Source of the DNA: Yuukianura sp. NJ FZ-2021 | Lineage: Eukaryota | Direction: 5' to 3' | NCBI GenBank assembly: GCA_046563655.1 | Contig: CM102286.1 | Coordinates: forward strand, 9,238,001-9,302,000 | Length of the DNA: 64,000 nt | Shown: positions 1 through 40,600 of the stretch, one piece after another | How the letters are laid out: every line of letters begins with the position of its first letter | How positions within the stretch are numbered: the first letter of the stretch is position 1 | Translations under genes and position numbers: made by a program | Notes under the pieces: generated by a model | Seen by the model: the letters and a program-made list of their open reading frames with translations, nothing else | Databases searched by the model: none | What the model was told of the DNA's origin: nothing

Positions 1-527
1 TGCGACGAATCGTGCTCATAATCGTAAATTTTTTTCCCAAGCGCAAGCCTTCTATTTAATTTCTTTCTTTTTTTGGAGTTTTTACGGTCATTTGGAGTAT
101 AGGATCTTTTTTTCTTTAATGTAATAATTGTATGATAAAGCCTGTGCATTTTCCCACTTTTTTGTCACAATTCTCATGGAAATATTGATGTAAATTATAT
201 GGACGAAAAAACTATATAACTATTCTTTATGCAACTGTGGCCAGAGATTGTGGTTCGGTAACCCAACAACCTTTGTAACCTTCGCAACCTTCATGTAATC
301 TTCGGGAAAAACCAAAAACAAAAGTTGCTTTGGAAAAATTATTTTGGTTGTTAAAAGATCCAGATTCATATGAGTTTGCGAATTAATTAATTATTTTTTG
401 AGAAGTTTTCATGGCAAACTGGTTTCAAGATAAGATCTTTAGTTGTGAAAGAAAACAAGGAAGGAGGAAGGCTTTGAAAGCTTACTGCGACTACATAGTA
501 GAGAGTACTACTTGCGAAAATGTGGAC

Positions 528-550
528 TAATATATATATATGAGACAGTT
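528..550 (+). promoter_or_regulatory. Candidate TATA-type core promoter for the terpene synthase-like gene
   Basis: (TA)n run ~70 bp upstream of the ATG at 607. ATTAAA signals follow the stop at ~1912 and ~1922. Confidence 0.3.
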
Positions 551-606
551 TCAATTCTGTTTACCAATTACAGTTTTATTCTCGCTCTATCCACATAATT
601 CCAAAA

Positions 607-1885
607 ATGGTTTCAATTGAAAATGGATCGTATCGTCTAACAAGTATTACACAATGCCCACCCGGAAAATTAAAATTAGTTTTTGATTTAGGGATTGTTG
701 ATCATCCCGTTTTTGCAAAAGCTTCTCAACTTTACGGAGAAGTTCCACTTTTTCAACGAAAAGAGTAAGTTCTAAGATGAAAATAAATATTTAAAAACCT
801 TATTCCAGGGTTAACCTTTTTTAACATTAAGTTGTTATGTAATCTTCAGAGAGATTACATTGTCAAACTACTTCGAAATGACACAGGAAGAACAAACTAA
901 AATTCTAGATGATGCTATCAAGCGTCTCCGCTACATTCTTGATAACTTGGACGAAGAAGAACTGAACAAATACATACAGGCTAACATCCTGGCTGCTTGC
1001 TCGTGTTTTCCAATTATCGACGTTCGTACTATCCGATTTGAACTTGCTCTATTATGCATCATTGCTGGTAGTATGGGTGATGATTTGGAAGACGATTTCA
1101 AGTTTTTGTTGGAGGATGTTGGCGAGACCAATCGATTGCTCATTGACAAAGTAGATTTGGATTGGAAAGCATTCAAAGCAAGCCAATATACTCTAGATAA
1201 CCGTGTCAAGGGCTTCACTGGTGTAATTCGTGCGAACGAAAGTGAAAAAAATCAGCGCATCTTTGCCGAAATTATGGCAAAGATGAAGGAAGAGTTTCCA
1301 GAGGGATATCCAGATGACGTCAAACATTGCATTCCGCAAGCCATAGGTATTCTTCAGTGTCAGACGTTGCGCTACAGGACGGATGACCCAATGCCTCTCT
1401 CAGAAGACATGCAGAAGATTCTTCGCGGCTACGATGCAGGGTTTGGTCCATGCGCAGAATTTGCAATAATATTTCTCAGGCTATCAATCCCAAAGAAGAT
1501 TAGGAAAAGCCTTTTGTTTAACCTTTTGACGACCGCTGTAATGGACTTCGCTGGGCTCCTCAATGATGTACTCGGGGTCTTGAAAGACGTCAAAGAAGAA
1601 GCTTTAGGAGAGAACTACATACTGCGTTGCGTTACACGAGAAGGAACTCCGCTACAACAGGCATTTAATGATGCATTTAAGCGACTTCGAAACTTGATAT
1701 CTGACATCGAAATCCTAATGTACCGTTTGTTGGAAGCCTTTCCGGAAGAAAAGGGCCTGCGTGCATACATTCAAGCGTGTAAGGATGTTTGTGACGGTCA
1801 AACAATAAGTTACGTCGTTGGTGCACAAAGTACCAAGCGCTACGGCGGCACTTTAAAAATTGTGCCAATGGAGACCGTCGGGTGA
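607..1885 (+). CDS. Class I (microbial-type) terpene synthase/cyclase-like protein, 2 exons (607-764, 850-1885), ~397 aa
   Basis: ATG at 607 opens a frame to a GTAAGT donor at 765. The TTCAG acceptor ends at 849, and the phase-2 splice joins in frame (GA+A=Glu) to the 860..1885 ORF. The protein has an Asp-rich motif (GDDLEDD), an R-x-x-D-A-G helix-G-kink-like motif (LRGYDAGFGP), an NSE/DTE-like motif (NDVLGVLKDVKEE) and a C-terminal RY (STKRY), in the order expected for class I terpene cyclases. Confidence 0.85.
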
Positions 1886-2283
1886 ACGATTTGTCGGTGG
1901 TTATGGAATTTATTAAACAGCATTAAATAGTAATATTGTAAAAACCATTACTAAAACTTCTAGATTTTTGGTGAAAACCTTGGCGGGTATGTTGAATATT
2001 AAATTGACTTAAAAATTTGCCCTTTTTTTTCTCCATTTCAGGTTTTATTTTTGGGGACCTGATTTTAAAGATTTACATCACACATTTTCTGCGACATCTC
2101 AAATGTGGTTCACCATTCGCTTGGAATCATAAAATTGTCTTAACAAGCAAAGTGGCGAAGAGATTATTTAGGGTAAAAAAAAGTTTTTTGAAATAAAGCT
2201 GGAAACGATTTAAAACATATCCAGGTCTACAAGTGAAAGTGGCGATTGCTTCTGGCTTACTGAATGAGTCTCAAAAAGCGTGA

Positions 2284-2305
2284 ATAATAATAATAATAAT
2301 AATAA
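2284..2305. repeat. (AAT)n microsatellite
   Basis: aataataataataataataataa run. Confidence 0.8.
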
Positions 2306-2898
2306 AAAATATGGGATGAGTGAATCTAGAAGAAACAAACTGTGATTCATCTTACCTTCGTTTTTGCAAATGTTAGTAAGTAAAATAGTAGGATCTTAAC
2401 AGTAACACCCACCCCTGGTTTTGATTAATCGACGGAAAGAATAATGGAGAAAGCGATAACTGTATCACATAATTTATAACCTACCCCATTTGTGAACTTT
2501 TTGAGAAAATAAACTGTCCCCTAAGTTATTTATGTGTTGCAAAATTGCTAATTTGCAAAAGAAGAGGTAGGAGGTTGGAAACACAAGAGCACAAAATCCA
2601 AATTGATTAATTTAAGAAATGTGGAGAATAGAAAACGAGTTTAAAAAAGTAAAACGTCGTGTGCATTACATATTTGGGAAAGTGCAAAAGGAATTTTATT
2701 ATTGAAGTAAGCCGCACGCTACCGCTTTGTGTGACGATTCAAACAACAATTTAGAAACCCAAATGGAAAATTGTTAGCTTGATATCCAGCGCAATAAGTA
2801 ATTGATTAGCCGAATGCGTATATGTAAAGCTTTTGTTTTCCAATGTTTATATAAACACACATTTTTATAATATATTTTAGTTAAACTAATTTGCTTAC

Positions 2899-5800
2899 CT
2901 TTCTGTTGGCGTATCTGAAATTGTTTGAGAGGATTCTTCGCTGCCTACAGAGTTGCATTGGTTGGTTCGATTTTGGTGAGCCGCTTCCCACTCCTCTCTA
3001 ACGGCAGTTTGCACTCTCTTCTGAAGCTCCCGCACTCTTTGTCGTTCATCCTCCAGCATCTGAACGCCTGAAACGCAAGATGGCGCTTGGTTAGCTCTTA
3101 AATCTGGTTTACAAATTTTTACTTTTGAAAGAAAGTATAGTCGAATGAAAGTACAGTTACCTTGTTCATTCAACAAAAACTCTCTGTACTTTTCAATTTC
3201 ACGCAACGTTTCACTAGCTTTAGCCCCAAAAACCCCAAGCTTTGGATCAATGGGAGAATTGGATTTGATCATTTCAATTGTGATCGCATCATCCGTTGCT
3301 ACAGACAAGAGAGTAAGAGCTTTCAACTTTTCCTCCAAGTCACAGTTCTTACCCTGGAAAGCAAACCAAAAAACGTGTTACATGAAAGCGACAGAAAAAA
3401 AGATCCAGTTTTCAATTCTTCGGGACCTACCATCTCATCTGAATCTGAATTTGAACTGAAAAACGAAATATCCGGAATGGTCAATGTGTCCGCTTTGACT
3501 GACTGTTGGCAATAAAAGTCATCAAATGCATAACTCAACTTCGAAATCAAAATTAATTGCATATGACAACATTTTATTTAGACAAACTTACTTCTTGAAG
3601 GTCGGCTACAAGCGACTGACGTTGGCTTTCCAATTTATGAATTTCTTTTACCGATGACGCTAGTGATGCTCTGTTTTGATTTCGAAGTTGTTCTAGCTCG
3701 ATTTGCTTTATCGAAAGTTTTCGTTTTGTTTCTGTAAATAATTTAGTAAGGTCGTCACGCTGAGCTTCTTTGCTTGCGGTTTCTTCCATTTGTTGAAACT
3801 CTGCATCCTCATAAACCTTTGAAATGAAAAAATTTGAGAGAAGTTTGACATAAGTTAGCAAAAAACTGAGAAAATCAAAAATCTTCGCTTACCTTTCTTT
3901 CAACTTCTACAAGTTCGTGTTGATATTTCAGTTTCTCAAGCAGTATAGTCTCCTCATCCGTTGTTCCACAAAAGTCTTCATGCATTTTCTCCAGTCGCTG
4001 CAAATTTCGCTCGCATGCTGACAGCTTCCGTTTCATCGCTGAAAGTTCTTGAGCGCTTGCTACCTTCCACAACCGAATTCCGCCGTCAATTTGACATAGA
4101 CAATTTCGAATTTCTTCTAATTGGGCTCTGCTCGTCTGAAGCTGAGTGTCCATTGCCTGTTCTTCACCAAGGAGAAGTGCTTTCTCCATTTCCATCTGAA
4201 AGTCAAACAAAATTTTACTGCGTTACAAGCTTCATAATTTACAGCTTTTGATTAAACCTTGACTTAATTGAAATTCTGAAGAAGATGGAAATCGAAGTTA
4301 CGGTTTTTGAAAAGTATTGCCACAAACCTCTCTCAGGGCTTCCATTTCTTGTTGTTCCAGATCTCTAATCTGGCTTTTGAGGCGGGAGATTGGATCTTCT
4401 TCAATTTTGCATGGACCAGCAGTCGACTCCTACAAAGACAAGAACCACAGAATTGCAGAATTAATTATCATGGATTTGCATCCACAAATAAGGAGCAAAG
4501 TGTGTGTTTGTAAGGACTCTCTTCCAAGATCCTGTTGGATTTGGCAACTTTTCTGGGTTTTCCAGGAAAGTTTTCAAAATTCAACAAGGAGTCTGTCAGT
4601 TTTGCCTAAAAGTTCCTTAAACTTTTGAAACTTTTGATTTGAAAGGTCTCACAGGCTGAACTTGCGCTACTTCTGCAAATTGAATGACATCAACTGTTGG
4701 AACCGTCTCGACAACTTGACATGCCTCTTGAATCACTGGAATTGGTGAAGAGGCTGTGGCAGAAACCGAAGTACTGGACTTTACATCCCATCTTGAAGGA
4801 GACTCACTTCCATTTTGAGACTCTGAGTGTATTTCTACTTTGGTAGCAACTGTTTTCACAATGGAACTATTTGGATTTAGTGGTACTTTGAGGCGACTCG
4901 TAAGTTCTGTATTGGATTTTGGACTGGAACTGGCCGAAGAGACGCGCGGAATGTAGTCGTCCATGTTATACTCTTCAACAGATCCAAAGGAAACGGAAAG
5001 TTTGGATTTTGGCGGGGGATTATCTGGAGAAGGTTTTGAAATTTTGACAAGGTTTCCATTTTGGGGTTGGTTGAGAGCTAAAACGGTTGGTCTTGGGCCA
5101 TCGACGACATCGGACGATGGAGCAGGTGACTGTGAACTTGTAATGCATGCGGCGTGCTTCTCAAGGTCATTCACACAAACATTTTCATAAGCATAATTGC
5201 CTTGGTTCAAACGAAGCATTCCCAGATCAAAACTGTTTCCGTTTTGCACAGTCCTTACTTTTGGTTGACTTGTTTCTGATAAACTGTGGTGTGTTGTGGG
5301 CATCATCGGATTTTGAAAGAACTGGACACGCGCTTCTGCGTTTCTAGACAAATTAAAAATTACATTAGAAAGTTAAATATTTGTTATGATTTACGTGCCA
5401 AGAATTAAACTTTAACTTTTGTAATGTCTCATAATTCATTTGACCCAACTCCAGCTTATTTACGCTCCCAGTTTTTGTGTATTCATTCCCAGTTTTCATG
5501 ACACTTGATGGGAAATCCTGATTTATGACCATACAAGCTTCTTCACACGGTTTAGACAAAAATGCGCGACTTTGCAAAACACAACGACACTCAATCATTT
5601 TACGTAATTACAAGAACGTGTGGGTTTGTCTAAAGCATAGTAAATACGACTTACAAGCCCACTGCACGCCGTCGTGTTTTGACAATAGCAGGAAATTTTT
5701 ATTAAGAATTCACGTTGTGGAGATTGGGCGTGGTGAAAGTTGCCGTGTGATGTGAGGCATATTAAATAAGGCACACGGTGTGTTGCTACTTTAATTTCAC

Positions 5801-8800: not shown

Positions 8801-11800
8801 CCATCAAAATCCTTTTTAATGCTTCAACGATGCCTATTCTATTCCATTGTCTTCCGACGACCCTTGCCAAGGAACACCACGATTCAAAAAGTTAGATTGA
8901 GGGTGCCTTTTTCCAGAACTAAAACCATTAAACACAGAAAGATTTCCCTAAAGTAAAGTAATTTTAGAAAGGAAATGTTCAAGTGCTAACTCACTTTATG
9001 GAATACTGTTAAAATAAAGACCAAACTATAGTGTTTGAGGCCTCAGAAAACACTGGACAAAGGCGGCAAACTCAAAACGAAAAGTTATAAAAACTGTACT
9101 GAGAAATTGGAAACTGTCGATGCCTGACTTTCCATTAAGTTTTTTATCACTTCGGTGTTTGCAAGTCCTAGAGTAGTTTGAATCTTTCATTGAATTTGTA
9201 CTTAACACCTCTTGTCTGTCTCCTAGATAAAGTGCGTAGAAACGACTGATTAGAACATGGACGAATACAAAGTGCAGAACTGAAAGCGTAAGTTTGTCTA
9301 ATCTGAAATTGGCAAGTTTAGAAGTACTTTGGGCTGGAAATGGAAAAAAGAGATTTGTCGTCTTCCAAGGCAGCAGGAAGTGATCAATGTTTGTTTTGGC
9401 ACATAAATATACCTTTTTGTTTGACTACGACAGCGTATGGACACTCTGTCAGCGGATTTAGACGATTTGTAGCTGGGAAACAGGTGACTTCAAGGGGCCT
9501 CTGACTCTGATCTGGTGCTAAATAAGGTTTTGGTGGTGGTGCTCCTTCAATAGGATTTCGGAAGTGTAGCAAATTCGAATCGCCAAGTCGAATAACGTTT
9601 CCTGAAAATAAAAGAAATGAGCATCATTTCTCAATCTAGATTTTTTTAAACCAAAGAACTTATGAAAATGAAACAAAAACAAGAGGTTTCGAGTTTTGCT
9701 CTAAACAACATTAATTTGGATTTAGCGTTTAAGTTTTTTTTACAATATATGTTTTGAACATATCTTTAAAACAAAAATTTGAAAGGTAGTTAGCGCAGAA
9801 GTGACAAGGGATGCTGAGAAGACGATTGATAGCTTCAAAAATTGAAGACAAAAGCATTTCCACGCACCTAAACCCACTCAATTCTTAATTTATTGTGGTC
9901 AGGAACTCTATAAATGCTTCGTGCAGCTCCCTATGAAGCTACCCAACACACACTTCCTGACCTTAGCGTCCGCAGGGATACCGGAGTTGTGCGCTTTAGG
10001 CCCCGTAGGAGCCTTTAGGTTGAAGACGTGACCTGCGATGTAATTAAACCTAACCCAAACTCTCCGCTCCAAGACCACATCCTGGGGTTGATGAAATTGG
10101 TTCTCACTCTCAGATCCGGCGCTGATTCTCATTAGACTCGGGAAGAAGGAGGCACCTTCTAGCATGTAAGTGCTTGTCTTTTTTAAACAAAAACTTTTCT
10201 TTTAAACAAAAAAACACAGGGGATTTACTTAAACTTTAAAAAAAACTTTGGTGTTTGAATTAATTCCGCTTTGGCATTGCGGTTCGAAAATGAGTTTCGC
10301 TTTGAACTTCCTTCTGGCACGATCTCCCAAACTCCGTACATTTTTAGATCCGTTTTTTCTCCAGGAAAAGTGAAATTTTGGAGGCGAAATTTTCTCCAAC
10401 GTCGTGGGAAGCGCCGCTGTTGAGAAAATGTGTTGAAGAGATCATTATGCATTCTGAGGCTGACAAGAAAAGTACACAGGGAGGTATTAGAAGAAAGATG
10501 GACGTCGTTTTGAATCCTCCTTTGTGTTCTTTTTATGGACGATCCGACGTACCGAGGTGCTTAATTTTGAACATTTAGAAAGTGGAGGGTCCTACACTTT
10601 AGGATTTCAACTGCTTGAGGTCGTAAATAAATTTAAGTCAGAGAGTAATCTATGTGACTGTGGCTTTTTATCAAATCTCTGCATCTGAAACAATTTTGGA
10701 GCTCATTTGTTCTTCGTTTTCATTAAAAGTGTTGTTTTTTCAAGGAACAACTCGGGAGAAAAAGTACAGAACTGAAATGTTGACATTCGGAGAAAATGTA
10801 TTTCAACAACCAGTTTTTAGAACAGCGGAAAGGTCAGTTCAGACCCTCACTTTATCATTCGAACTTGAGGATCATCCCTCGCAGCGATTTCAAATAAATT
10901 CAACTGTCAATTTCTACGAAAAAGAGGAACAATTGGAGTCTCCACACCTTAAGAGAGTGTCAGGCCGTTTTTGAACACTTTTTCGAAAAGGAAATGACAA
11001 GACTTGTTTCTTAGACAACTTTGAAAGTGAACAAATTCCACAAGTCGTGGGGTGCATTATCCTTTTGTGAAAAATGTAAGTTACATTATGTAACCCAACA
11101 AAAAGTTATACCGTGTTTGAGCTGTGTGGGGCCGGAGACTCGAACGCCGTCAACCGTCGTAAGGTCACTGATGGGGTGGAGAGTGACCTCGTCTTGTCTG
11201 TTGAGCCTTTCAATGAAACAGTGTTGTGGAGCTATGCCTGAGCCCTCCAGAACAATTTCAGGAGACTTGACACAACCTTTCCCAGTTCCCAGCATGGTCA
11301 CTCCTGCAAGAAAACGGAAAAATCAACATTAGTGTCGTGCATCTAAAGCGTCCAATCTGTCGAGAATTTTTCACTTTTTGAAACCTTTAACATTATCTCT
11401 GTCAGCGTGAAAGTTAACAATTTGAAGTTCAGATTACACCATGGAGCAACGCATAATAAAAAACTAAAGATTCCTTTGAGTCTCAAATTCACACGCTCTG
11501 ATAATTCTTTGTTTAATTTTTGAATCAGTTTCAAATTTCGCTTGCGTATGCAGCGCATCAATCAAAAAGGAATGAAAAATTATTTAAGCTGAATCAAATG
11601 ATGAGGTGGCTTAAAGCTAGATCCTCCTGAACTGACTGGGTTTTCTTTAGCATATTGAAAAATTAAGATTCTGATTCATTTTAGCGGAAGACAGAAATGC
11701 TTAGGTGTTCATGCGTTGGCAAAAGCATATTTAAAAATAGGAAAAAGCCAAGAAATGTTTAGATTACTTTCTCACTTTCACGAACAGTGCGTATACAGTT

Positions 11801-20261: not shown

Positions 20262-21370
20262 GTGGGGGAAGAAAGCGGAAAGGGGGCGGAAAAGTGGGGC
20301 AACCCCCCCACTCCCTCCGGGGGGGGGGGCGGAAAGTGGGGGGAACTTTTCCCCAGTTCCCCCGGGGGGCGGAAAGGTGGGGGGAATCCCCCCACTCCCC
20401 CGGGGGGGGGGGCGGAAAAATGGGGGCAACCCCCCCACTCCCCCCGGGGGGGGGGGCGGAAAAGTGGGGGGAACTTTTTCCCAGTTCCCCCGGGGGGGGG
20501 GGCGGAAAGGTGGGGGGAATCTCCCCACTCCCCCGGGGGGGGGGCGGAAAAGTGGGGGGAACCCACCCCCACTCCCCTGGGGGGGGGGGAAGTGGGGGGA
20601 ACCCCCACTCCCCCAGGGGGGGGGCGGGAAAGTGGGGGGAACCTCCCCCACTCCCCCGGGGGGCGGGAAAGTGGAGGAAACGGTGGGAAATGTGGGGAAA
20701 ACTGTGGGGAATGTGGGGGAAACGGTGAGAAATGTGGGGAATGTGTGGAAAACGGCGGGAAACATGGGGAAAATGGTGGGAAATGTTTGGAAAACTGTGG
20801 GGAATGTAGGGGAAACGGTGGGAAATGTGGGGGAAACTGTGGGGAATGCGGGGGAAACGGTGAGAAATGTGGGGAATGTGTGGAAAACGGCGGGAAACAC
20901 GGGGAAAATGGTGGGAAATGTTTGGAAAACTGTGGAAAATGTGGGGGAAACGGTGGGAAATGTGGGGAAAACTGTGGGGAATGTGAAGGAAACGGTGAGA
21001 AATGTGGGGAATGTGTGGAAAACGGCGGGAAACATGGGGAAAATGGTGGGAAATGTTTGGAAAACTGTGGAAAATGTGGGGGAAACGGTGGGAAATGTGG
21101 GGAAAACTGTGGGGAATGTGGGGGAAACGGTGAGAAATGTGGGGAATGTGTGGAAAACGGCGGGAAACATGGGGAAAATGGTAGGAAATGTTGGGAAAAC
21201 TGTGGAAAATGTGGGTAAAACGGTGTTGAATGTGGGAAAAACTGTGGGGAAGGTGGGGGAAACGGTGGGGAATGTGGGGAAAACGGTGGGAAATGTGGGG
21301 AAAACGGTGGGGGATATGGGGGAAAGGGTGAGCCCCCACAGGTGAACCACATTTTCCACCCGGGGAAAAA
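20262..21370. repeat. G-rich minisatellite: G/C hairpin-type units (~20280-20670), then GGGAAA(T/C)GT-type units with a longer period (~20670-21330)
   Basis: Visible tandem units. Long repetitive ORFs occur in all six frames because the repeat lacks stop codons. Confidence 0.9.
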
Positions 21371-26340: not shown

Positions 26341-27338
26341 ACAAACAATACTTCCACCATTCCCCTGCGCTTAGCCCCTTGGCTAACCAATGTAGGTTTT
26401 GGCTGGAACACAACTGGTTAGAACAATACCGAAAATCGAGAAGTTATGATGGAATCCTAAGAAATCGTGTGTTAGGAAAATATACTTGGTATATTTAAAA
26501 GTAATGGTTGGAAAGTATATTCTGTCGTTAGGATAAGCGCCTTGGATTTTCATCTCACCATCACTGTTGTCAAATTTCAACCTAAATGTTCTGTTAGGTT
26601 AATAACATACGGAGTCTTTTCGAACTTCATGTTTTTTGTCTGATTTTAGCCAGAAATACACCGATGCCAAATACCTAAAAAAAAAAAAACTTAGATTCAT
26701 GTATAGCCCATGCGAGTTCAAAATAGGCAGCTTCAGTTCTGTGGCAGAATGTCCTATCTAATTGTAAAATACCCGTGCCATAATTTTTTATGTCAAAGGT
26801 CAACCGCTACTACGTTTACCACCATTCCTATTGGCATCATTTTCAACAGGGCTGAATTCCTAGCTATTTATAAAGCAAGCCAAACATAGAGACATGCCCG
26901 TTTATGGCTAAGCTAAATAATTTAGAGGCAAAAGTTTTATTACAAAACCTTTTAATATAAACTAAAAAGACAAGACAAGACAAGAAAGCCAGCTCAAATT
27001 TAGCTCGCGTTGGACTCGTTCCAACTCCCGGGGTCTTAGTTTGGCCGTAAGCCAGTTTTTCCAAAGTAACAAGAAATGCGAATGAACTGTGCCCTGAGCC
27101 CAACAAAAAGCTAAAAATACCATCACTTTGTTGTAAGTATTTAAACGACTCCACAAGTCCGTATGGGTATTATTTAGAAATTCGGTTAGGCGGGAGGAAG
27201 ACCAACACACAAAATTCTGCAGTAGTTGTATTGTATCCTGTCAACACCATTTAACGTCTTGTACACGTTAGCATAAGTGGTAAGCACTACCAAACAAAGC
27301 GTTACACAGTAATAGATTTGGAAATTACACATATAACA

Positions 27339-28121
27339 ATGAGTTCATCAAATACACCACAACGGGAAGCCGACCCCGCCCAACGCTCATCAAAGACTTT
27401 TATTTTTCAATCAAATACTCCGAAGCCTCCATCGATCCCGCTTCCTAAATTCAGTGGCAAACCAAGAGAGGATGTTCGCAAGTTCTTAACCAGATTCGAG
27501 CTTGCAGCTTTAGGTAACTCAATCAACAGAGGTAATTGGGCTATGTATCTGAGCAATTGTTTAGAAGAAACTGCGGAGAACTGGTATCATGGGTACCTCC
27601 AGTCGCAATTAAACTTGAAACCCAGCGGCGTCCAAATAACGTATGAATGCTTGCGCGATGAGTTGTTGAAAAGCTTCGGAATCAAAGATTCGATAGCAGC
27701 TGAGGAAAAAGTCAATAATCGGAAACAATTGCTTAACGAAACCATAGAGGCATACGCTTTTGACCTACTTTCTTTACTTCAACAATTGGATCCAGCAATG
27801 GATGAAAAACGCAAACTCAGGTGCTTGATAAAAAATTTGCGACCAAACAATTTGACTCAAATGGCACTAATGCAACCAAAAACGATAAAGGATTTTCTAG
27901 ACCTAGCAAAAAATATCCAAGAAGCTAATTCAATGATTTCGGTGCAGCGCGAGATAAATGTAGTAGAACAAGCTCTTGAAGCTGCAATTCAAAATAACGA
28001 AGCAGTCCGTAATCTTTCAAATCAAGTTAACACACTTATGGCTAACTACTATAACCCACCAGATCCTACACCCCTGATGGAGGAAGGAGAAAATGAATCG
28101 TATTGGGATGACGAATATTAG
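27339..28121 (+). CDS. Retrotransposon Gag/capsid-like protein (Ty3/Gypsy, Arc-like), ~260 aa
   Basis: Motifs LPKFSGKPREDVRKFLTRFE, LEETAENWY, LRDELLKSFG and RKQLLNETIEAY (MHR-like). No CCHC knuckle. Acidic C-terminal tail. AATAAA signals follow shortly after the stop. Confidence 0.82.
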   Translation: MSSSNTPQREADPAQRSSKTFIFQSNTPKPPSIPLPKFSGKPREDVRKFLTRFELAALGNSINRGNWAMYLSNCLEETAENWYHGYLQSQLNLKPSGVQITYECLRDELLKSFGIKDSIAAEEKVNNRKQLLNETIEAYAFDLLSLLQQLDPAMDEKRKLRCLIKNLRPNNLTQMALMQPKTIKDFLDLAKNIQEANSMISVQREINVVEQALEAAIQNNEAVRNLSNQVNTLMANYYNPPDPTPLMEEGENESYWDDEY

Positions 28122-36600: not shown

Positions 36601-37066
36601 ACTTAGAGTTTATTGAAAAGACAAAATTTTAATAAATTAACTAATCAATAAGCTAACCAAAGCTATTACATAACGCCTCTTAAGCACTTAAACACTTAAA
36701 AAGCGGGTGTTCTATGATGTTGAAAACTTTAAAAAAAAAGTTTAAAAACAAGAATAATTTTTTAAGGTTCATTTTTCCAAGAACGCAAGAAAGGTACCCT
36801 GAAGATAATCTCTTATGGGTGGAAGTTTATTTAAAACTGCTACTTGATTGATAAACGCCAGAACGTGCCAAAAAACATTTTTTTGAAAGTTGAAACGAGT
36901 TCTAACAATGCAGATAACCAAACCCTGATACCGAAAATTTTTTGTTCATTTGCAGAGAGTAATTTCGTTCTCTTCAAGTTAATTTCTTTTGCAGATAATG
37001 TTCCGTTTATTTGGAAATTTTCAATTAACTATATGTTTTTTATATGTGAATTAGAAGTTGGCAGCA

Positions 37067-37558
37067 ATGGAAGGGGTTCGTGACATGTCTATTCCTTATA
37101 CTGAAGACGAAATTCAGAAAGTTTTGGCAAAATTACGAACTTTCAGAACTTATGACCCCGTGACGGACTCCATCGGAACAGACGACACTGTCAACTCTGG
37201 TTTGGCTCTAGGAATTGGAAACACGGATGAGCAAAATCGTGCTTACGCAAGCTACTTTGACAGGAATCACGCGGGACGCTGTAATCTGACTGACTACGAA
37301 CGACTTATGCGTTCACTCCATACAGTTGCCCTTCAAGCTGGATGGTACGCCGACATGTGCGACCTTAATAAAGATGGCGCGATCAGTAGAAATGAATTTG
37401 AGCAAATATACGAACTTATGTCTGTTCAATGGCCAGCCATTGCAGGAAAAAGCTACGATGACTTCGCTCAAGAAGCAGACACAAATCGCGACGGAATTGT
37501 CCAAATTTCCGAAATGCAAGCCTGGATCGAGAAAATGGCGGCTGAAGGAAAGCGTTGA
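37067..37558 (+). CDS. Small EF-hand calcium-binding protein (~163 aa), single coding exon
   Basis: Two canonical EF-hand loops (DLNKDGAISRNE, DTNRDGIVQISE) and a degenerate one (DRNHAGRCNLTD). An AG acceptor just upstream of the ATG suggests an upstream exon. Confidence 0.8.
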   Translation: MEGVRDMSIPYTEDEIQKVLAKLRTFRTYDPVTDSIGTDDTVNSGLALGIGNTDEQNRAYASYFDRNHAGRCNLTDYERLMRSLHTVALQAGWYADMCDLNKDGAISRNEFEQIYELMSVQWPAIAGKSYDDFAQEADTNRDGIVQISEMQAWIEKMAAEGKR

Positions 37559-38504: not shown

Positions 38505-40040
38505 TATATGTATGTTTTTCAGAGGGATCTCTAAGTGCATTTTACACAGAGAGGATCACGGCGATGAGGCGCACTATCGAGCCTATTTCGCACTCTCCAT
38601 AACACCAATTTAATTTCAGGGATTTACTCTCCCAGATCTAACCTTCGCTCTATTTAATTTTCGGAGGAATTCCGTTAGTTCAGAGAGAGAAGTGTTTTGA
38701 AGATCTTCCTTTCTCAAGAGGTATACCCCAAATGCCTTTAGCCTTGGGTTCATGTGTGCCTCACACTCCATCAGGAGGTGATCGCGAGTCTCTTCCTTAT
38801 ATCCACAGTGTGGACATAATGGCGACTCTGCGATACCCATCCTGTCGAGGTGTTTGGCATATTGTCCATGTCCTGTAATCAATTCTGTAAGAGATTTAAG
38901 ATCTTCTCTATTTAGTTTTAAGCAGTGCTTAGCATTTTGAGTACATATTTTTGTGATTACTTTTTAGAGTCTTCACATCCCTGTTGTGATCGCCATCTTT
39001 TTTCATGACAGGTTCTGGAATAGTCACTGATTGCTGTTACTATTGTACTGTAAGGAATTGGTAATATTGGTTCTGGCCCAATAAATTTTGTGTAAGAAGC
39101 CGCCTTCGCTAAACTGTCCACTATTTCATTTCCTACATACCCCTTATGTGCTGGTATCCAGTTAACATTTAGCGGGCATATTGTGCTGATTTTGTTAAGT
39201 GTTATGTGAGATTCATAGATAAGGATTGTACTCTCATCATTTTTTCCCATTAGGCTTTTAACAACTCCTTGGTTGTCGATATAAATTTCAACAAGTTTTA
39301 TGTTCTTATATTCTGGTTTATCTGCAGACAAGGTCTTTTCAACCCAATCAGCAGCCGAAAGTAGAGTGTACGCCTCTGCTTGAAAGACGCTTGTGTATTG
39401 TCCAAGGGGATATATTTCACTTGGTAGTATTTTGTTACCATTGAGTACTACGTATGCAGCACCGGAAGAATTTATTTTAGATCCATTAGTGAAGACGTGG
39501 AAGACCGTAGCGCTACGCTCCAGCTCCCCTTCCTCTTCCCAATGTTTCCGTTTCTTTATTAGTATATTGTAACTTATGGGAGGAGTGGGTAGGGGATATA
39601 GTGGGAGATTATTTCTCCATTCCTCACATTGTTTTATATGGGTGTTCCTTCTCAGAAGCCCCATTGATTTCCATGGGAGCCAGTTCTTATGGTCAATTAG
39701 CCTTAGCATTGTTTTAACGCACAATGTCATGATGTGAAGGTGGATTTGGCGTATGTCTATAATACACTCCATGCTGGCAGTTGGCGTGGATCGCATTGCC
39801 CCTGTTATGTTGAGCAATGCCAGCCTTTGCGCCTTTTGCAGCATGGTTAGTGTGTTTTGTTTAGTTACTGCGGTTGCCCAGCAGACGCACGCATGTGTGA
39901 TCCTCGGGCGGACAATAGCAGTATAAATCCAGTAACATATTTTAGGATTGAGTCCCCACGTTGTGGATATAGCTCGTTTACACTGATGCAGAGTGATTAT
40001 TCCTGCAAGTGCTTTGGTTTTACAATGTTCAGTCCACGTT
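38505..40040 (-). mobile_element. 5'-truncated non-LTR retrotransposon (LOA/Lian-like, I group): RT C-terminus, RNase H, CCHC finger, 3' UTR; decayed
   Basis: RT C-terminal region WGLNPKICYWIYTAIVRPRI...QRLALLNITGAMRSTPT. RNase H motifs FTNGSK, EAY, IYIDNQ and WIPAHKGYVGNEIVDSLAK. After a frameshift near 38957 come ITGHG and CPHC...DHLLMEC. The first catalytic Asp appears as Asn. Confidence 0.88.
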
Positions 40041-40600
40041 TCAGGCAAGACGAACGTTGACCTGTTGACCTTAAGGTGCGATGCTTTAATTGCATCGGGT
40101 GCTTTGGACAGCAGTTCGCTGATCCTAAGATTCCATCTTTTGATGGAAGGTGAAGCACTAGAATGGTGGCGATGGTCACAAACGAAAATTATCAGGGATT
40201 TGACCCCTGCAAATTCCAATTCTAAGTGGCAGGACTTGAAAATTGCGATCAGGTCATTCTATGACCCCGAACAGGTCAAATCGGACGCAAAGAGAAAACT
40301 AAAAACTATTTTTCTACAAACTTGCGACTCTCATTATGAGTATGTCGCCAAGAAACTGGCATGCCTGTCGGTCATTGATTCAGACATGTCTGAAGAAAAA
40401 CAAGTTGAAAAATTAATCAAAGGTCTCCCATATTTTGTAAAAAACATGATGACCCTGATTGGCCCCTAAACTCCTGCCGAGTTTTTACAAAAACTTAGGA
40501 AGTTAGGAAAGCCTAACTTCAACAATGACAAAAAAGTCAAAATTCGCTGGTCAAATTCAAATCACCTGCAGATAATACAAATCCAAATAAGCAAAAAGAG
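40035..40600 (+). pseudogene. Gypsy-like gag fragment with premature stop
   Basis: SGKTNVD...LMEGEALEWW...WQDLKIAIRSFY...LIKGLP. A stop at 40467-40469 is followed by an in-frame continuation TPAEFL. Confidence 0.7.

Follow-up and report, generated by a model that had tools for sequence, protein, structure and literature searches.

A two-exon class I terpene synthase (TPS) gene lies antisense within a 4,142-nt intron of a PHLDB gene in the 64,000-nt stretch of contig C4 analysed here (the window; G000:C4:9238001-9302000 of the Yuukianura sp. NJ FZ-2021 assembly), an arrangement confirmed at the level of gene models. Coordinates are positions in the window, with negative numbers extending them leftwards. 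The TPS is placed in the PHLDB intron because host exons at 2899 and -1244 flank it on the opposite strand in one open GT-AG frame; the ten-exon model of the PHLDB 3' part is GT-AG throughout and encodes 590 amino acids without interruption in three of three copies of the locus. We are strongly inclined to the reading that the gene was copied at the DNA level from its own expanded family into an intron that was already old and long.

The PHLDB exon that borders the TPS ends at 2899 on the minus strand (...ACAGAAAG, followed by GTAAGC) in a phase-2 donor and without a stop, just as the initial annotation had stated, and the splice model agrees. That annotation further proposed that the gene runs on past the window start, with the TPS in one of its introns. 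Extending the contig leftwards by 60 kb of DNA without any N bore this out: four further exons lead to a stop at -22023. The first of them, next after 2899, lies 1.2 kb beyond the left edge of the window, and the PH exons follow at a distance of 21-22 kb from that edge. The host intron runs from 2898 to -1243, so that positions 1..2898 are its part within the window and its far end lies 1,243 nt outside, on the left. Beyond it lie minus-strand exons at -1244..-1367 (phase 2 to phase 0), -18885..-19010, -20793..-21062 (tblastn match from -20796) and -21835..-22023 (the last exon, with the stop), all with GT-AG borders and the latter three recovered by tblastn. On the other side, tblastn with orthologues together with the splice model places minus-strand exons at 2899..3067, 3161..3353, 3592..3816 and 3893..4195 (both coiled-coil) and 4328..4429 (the first of the ten), while a small exon at 3431..3502 keeps the frame and its GT-AG borders in all three copies. 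Near the 5' end of the gene, an FHA-domain exon on the same strand (11112..11303) was found by orthologue tblastn and matches PF00498 at 30.4 bits.

Of 61 candidates from a PH profile search of the whole assembly (98.7 Mb in 22 contigs), 28 were matches, including one on the minus strand at C4:9216938-9217078. This domain scores 26.8 bits, above the cut-off, is preceded by the segment RPLTRYLP, and has PHLDB1/2 as its named matches, which identifies the host as a PHLDB/LL5 gene. Neither the profile search nor tblastn with PHLDB orthologues gave a PH match in window 1-2898, in keeping with the annotated absence of a PH exon there. Among named relatives, the PH exon is closest to Orchesella dallaii (77%) and Folsomia candida (72%), ahead of insects (at most 69%), with crustacean PHLDB also matching; the PHLDB gene and the TPS inside it therefore most likely belong to a springtail nuclear genome, judging from this exon. 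The Orchesella and Folsomia orthologues align to colinear PHLDB exons at positions of at least 2901 and at -18885, -20796 and -21835. The exon at -1244 was not recovered by the strict exon scan; a relaxed splice scan yielded 38 phase-2 candidates, ten of which are kept in all three copies, and -1244..-1367 is the only one of the ten that matches the orthologue linker (16 of 41 residues identical to Folsomia, pairwise E-value 0.003), with the same terminal residues as the springtail linker.

The TPS itself occupies 607-1885 on the plus strand, with its ATG at 607 and a predicted product of 397 amino acids. Exon 1 (607..764; 52 codons plus 2 nt) has homologous first exons at paralogue loci, the intron (765..849) is an 85-nt GT-AG intron of phase 2, and exon 2 (850..1885, up to the stop) matches Pfam Terpene_syn_C_2 (PF19086) at 31.3 bits, against a curated cut-off of 23.7, as a class I microbial-type domain. 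All four catalytic motif positions, which lie in exon 2, are occupied: the DDxxD motif is DDLED (D130-D134), the pyrophosphate-sensor arginine R245 and the RY pair R383-Y384 are present as assigned by position, and the NSE-like segment reads ND291xxGxxKD299, compared with the triad NDxxSxxxE. The G and the D of NDxxGxxKD are invariant in 11 of 11 TPS paralogues, suggesting a conserved variant and not decay. The gene would thus encode an active class I cyclase, and by analogy with the enzymes described from Sinella and other springtails its substrate is probably farnesyl diphosphate (FPP) or geranylgeranyl diphosphate (GGPP).

Orthologous introns in relatives, the comparison that the initial annotation had recommended, suggest that the TPS is the newcomer in the pair. 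A metagenome scan with the upstream PHLDB exon found four loci (L077-L080), all with the same phase-2 donor. Two of the contigs reach the following PHLDB exon, across an intron of about 4.3 kb in L078 and about 3.5 kb in L080, and neither intron contains a TPS: the best tblastn match with ten paralogue frames had an E-value of 0.37 over 17 residues, and the profile hidden Markov model gave nothing at an E-value of 1 or below. The contigs of L077 and L079 end 383 and 828 nt past the exon and are uninformative on the TPS, L079 being the closest relative (78%). Over three exons, PHLDB identity to the window is 61% for L078, which groups with Folsomia in the PHLDB tree (bootstrap 85), and 56% for L080. 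Since such distant loci have the same phase-2 intron at 3.5-4.3 kb, the host intron appears to be old and already long.

The TPS profile search of the same assembly gave 37 matches among 47 scored candidates, corresponding to at least about 30 loci on six contigs. Within this family the window TPS forms a clade (98/97 support) with L004, L005, L006, L008 and L009, a pair on C3 and a trio on C7, its best identity to them being 52% (with L004). The position and phase of its intron are common to all five of these closest paralogues, which lie outside PHLDB and outside the block of genes described below. Because the copy retains this intron, we infer that it reached PHLDB by duplication at the DNA level and not by retroposition. 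A search for transposon ends and target-site repeats in window 1-2900 and the adjoining 1.4 kb on the left came up empty. An open frame at -355..-117, considered as an additional TPS exon, was rejected, being frameshifted in copy B of the locus. In the history that we propose, the TPS family would have expanded and a two-exon member would have been copied as DNA into the long PHLDB intron on the opposite strand, where it would be tolerated, its splice sites being oriented away from the transcript of the host. The TPS most likely uses its own promoter, and its product would cyclise a prenyl diphosphate with Mg2+ bound by the DDxxD and NSE-like motifs, while PHLDB would be spliced over it and end in the PH domain 22 kb further on.

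The nested pair is part of a larger block present three times on C4 (A, B and W, the window copy), colinear at a mean identity of about 95% and inverted in A. The block contains an Ig-domain gene, a trypsin gene, PHLDB and an EF-hand gene, extends over about 150 kb in W, and forms gene islands at about 8.30-8.44, 8.87-9.05 and 9.13-9.28 Mb, each flanked by a 128-bp satellite array at one end and by a 223-bp or 288/336-bp array at the opposite end. The suggestion that more TPS copies may lie just outside the window was not borne out: there is no match in the 60 kb leftwards, and the nearest, 222 kb and 907 kb off at C4:9.015 Mb (B) and C4:8.33 Mb (A), each beside a PH match, belong to whole-block copies that are possibly alleles. 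All three copies keep the PHLDB 3' model intact, and W alone has an intact TPS.

Several observations weigh against our reading. The TPS is frameshifted in A (+1 at nucleotide 329 of the coding sequence) and in B (-1 at nucleotide 608); these changes may partly be consensus errors, since an Ig exon of copy B shows a comparable 1-nt change. The NSE motif departs from the canonical form (S to G, E to D). The -1244 exon is short and of low complexity, with an Orchesella match of just 5 of 7 residues (E-value 0.055). PHLDB splicing across the host intron and TPS expression are both predictions from sequence. Finally, the two relatives without a TPS share 56-61% PHLDB identity with the window, and at this distance loss of the TPS in them is possible.

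How the three blocks arose is a separate matter. It is fairly probable that they are uncollapsed haplotypes of one locus, in which case the TPS is a single gene, intact in one allele and frameshifted in the other two, or with consensus errors. A 100-N gap separates B from W at C4:9091390, the sole gap in the 812 kb read (which leave out 8.47-8.80 Mb of the A-B interval), and gaps separating duplicates on the same scaffold are listed as a mark of false duplication (PMC9516828). Divergence is star-like (over 83 one-kb bins, the changes specific to a single copy number 1331, 1349 and 1286), the genealogy of the copies is strongly mosaic (chi2 976 on 164 degrees of freedom), the neighbouring Ig and trypsin exons are 97-100% identical between copies, and the block ends carry satellite arrays. 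Against this, three haplotypes require pooled animals or polyploidy, divergence of about 5%, accompanied by numerous kb-size indels, is high for alleles, and no second gap appears in the 812 kb read, which cover the A-B interval in part. Gene conversion between paralogues could also produce a mosaic genealogy, and the chi2 value treats sites as independent. If the haplotype explanation is right, TPS counts taken from the assembly may be inflated.

A true triplication of recent date, in which a gene island lying between satellites was duplicated as a segment, with PHLDB intact three times and the TPS decaying in two copies, is plausible without being what we would expect. The TPS frameshifts in A and B are independent, copy-specific insertions are numerous, and the TPS of lineage A looks relaxed (omega, the ratio of nonsynonymous to synonymous rates, about 0.6 compared with 0.37 and 0.20; Fisher p 0.03). 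Set against these are the B-W scaffold gap and the mosaic genealogy, the TPS of B, which is still at an omega of about 0.2, and the nature of the frameshifts: that in the Ig exon of B (G000:C4:8948058-8948454), an exon otherwise 99% identical, is possibly a consensus error, and all three are 1-nt run-length changes typical of such errors.

Between copies, PHLDB has a synonymous divergence (dS) of 0.06-0.08 and a ratio of nonsynonymous to synonymous divergence (dN/dS) of about 0.1, while the TPS has a dS of 0.15-0.19 and pairwise dN/dS of 0.23-0.47. The window TPS is under purifying selection, its lineage having 15 nonsynonymous and 12 synonymous changes (p about 0.01 against neutrality). Divergence between the blocks peaks over the nested gene: in the three 1-kb bins of window 1-3000 the number of variable sites per kb is 100-129, compared with a median of 45 for the block, which places these bins 1st, 3rd and 5th among 83. 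Because the TPS region is the divergence peak and TPS dS exceeds that of PHLDB, the copies could be alleles held as a balanced polymorphism, in which a chemical-defence enzyme, intact in one version and null in two, is kept in an intron of a conserved host gene. We consider this unlikely; were it true, terpene chemotype in a soil arthropod could be genotyped directly at this intron.

It is very improbable that the TPS is not nested at all, with PHLDB ending somewhere in 1886-2898 and another gene, or a misassembled join, accounting for the PH exons. A short alternative isoform is conceivable. The colinear in-frame exons, however, match full-length Orchesella and Folsomia PHLDB proteins, the PHLDB/TPS layout is identical in three independently diverged copies, and there is no N from 2899 to -22023, so that a misassembly between 1885 and 2899, named beforehand as a result that would overturn the nesting, is not supported either. 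Within 1886-2898, the phase-2 candidates kept in all three copies amount to a 12-nt exon. Weakest of all, and hardly credible, is the suggestion that the PHLDB intron was the original site of a fresh microbial transfer or that the TPS is a contaminant: the fold is of microbial type and the Atlas look-alikes of paralogue L004 are, with a very high score, fungal and actinobacterial TPS (PF19086) clusters, but the gene has a spliceosomal intron at a position shared outside PHLDB, sits inside the family tree, occupies the same place in all three block copies, and has paralogues at about 30 loci on six contigs of the same genome.

The initial annotation, which had likewise argued against contamination, also saw in PHLDB a synteny anchor for dating the insertion. 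That holds for a secondary move within the genome and not for the horizontal transfer itself, since the TPS shares its intron with paralogues and is nested in their tree; the PHLDB intron would thus mark neither the date nor the landing site of the original microbial transfer. It is nevertheless a usable presence/absence marker across springtails.

The nested TPS is a real but fairly ordinary arrangement, combining two things already published: a springtail microbial-type TPS family and the antisense nesting of a duplicate. In a survey of 26 springtail genomes, TPS genes occur in 21 and number 277; 55% of these genes have introns, they form their own clade, and the enzymes ScTC1-5 come from the same work (PMC13638087). 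The springtail enzymes FcTPS and AfTPS have been assayed (PMC11665903); the latter source also uses introns and linkage to a neighbour gene against contamination in Sciaridae. With these collembolan enzymes the window TPS shares the springtail host, PF19086, DDxxD, the Arg sensor, RY, introns and large species-level expansion (PMC11665903, PMC13638087), and membership of the published clade is likely; unlike their NSE triad, its own reads NDxxGxxKD. Nested structures take in 9.5% of Drosophila genes, and 71% of the genes nested in others are antisense, which is ascribed to selection against mis-splicing (PMC3814207); such an arrangement typically begins with a short, young duplicate that lands in a long intron (PMC5174743). 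The window pair resembles these cases in that a short antisense duplicate, with its own intron kept, occupies a long intron within a conserved gene and evolves faster than its host, but differs in that the inner gene comes from a family of ultimately microbial type. The host has the N-terminal FHA domain, coiled coils, RPLTRYLP segment and C-terminal PH domain of PHLDB/LL5; unlike typical members, it occurs three times in the assembly, and its introns host the TPS as well as, in two of the copies, an EF-hand gene. In a family of about 30 members, a few nested TPSs are to be expected. We found no published description of nesting of the TPS/PHLDB type in a literature search that reached few subscription papers; the words 'nested', 'synteny' and 'tandem' are absent from the main text of PMC13638087, whose supplementary gene lists and trees could include the window family. 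The pair offers a clean example of a microbial-type enzyme family spreading in an animal genome via DNA-level copying into introns.

Searches beyond the assembly were made via paralogues and a family profile, which collected 162 proteins at an E-value of 0.001 or below. Of 150 listed profile matches, the 20 looked up had no informative names, in a search by way of the paralogues and not of the window TPS itself; the best unnamed relative among them is 38% identical to exon 2 of the window TPS (local blastp). No named springtail TPS was returned by these searches, and a closer named relative may exist. A word-based homologue search gave no match for L004 and one for alignment A2, and the A2 profile had no match among solved structures. 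Two paralogues are divergent: L013 (C2:1721673) is without the first Asp of DDxxD and the NSE Asn, and L019 (C2:1625233) has an altered NSE-like segment. The C7 trio (L005:40-1086, L006; about 1.077-1.100 Mb) adjoins UDP-glycosyltransferase-like frames (Pfam UDPGT, EryCIII-like C), possibly as a terpene-tailoring cluster.

The EF-hand gene at window 37055-37558 has been duplicated into the next PHLDB intron (17.5 kb), at L022:8876-9526, or window -10924..-10271. This duplicate is also antisense to PHLDB and lies inside a 6.4-kb stretch present in W and B and absent in A, which suggests a second, younger nesting in the same gene. Repeats in the window (40670-64000, 20282-21330, 27255-28121 and 38957-40469) include a 288-bp satellite in about 80 copies and G-rich minisatellites, and these four stretches also carry two Ty3-like gag fragments and a fragment of an RNase H-bearing retroelement. 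A further tandem array, with 29 copies of a 195-bp unit that reads as a long open frame, lies at G000:C4:9203745-9209408 and is absent at that place in A and B.

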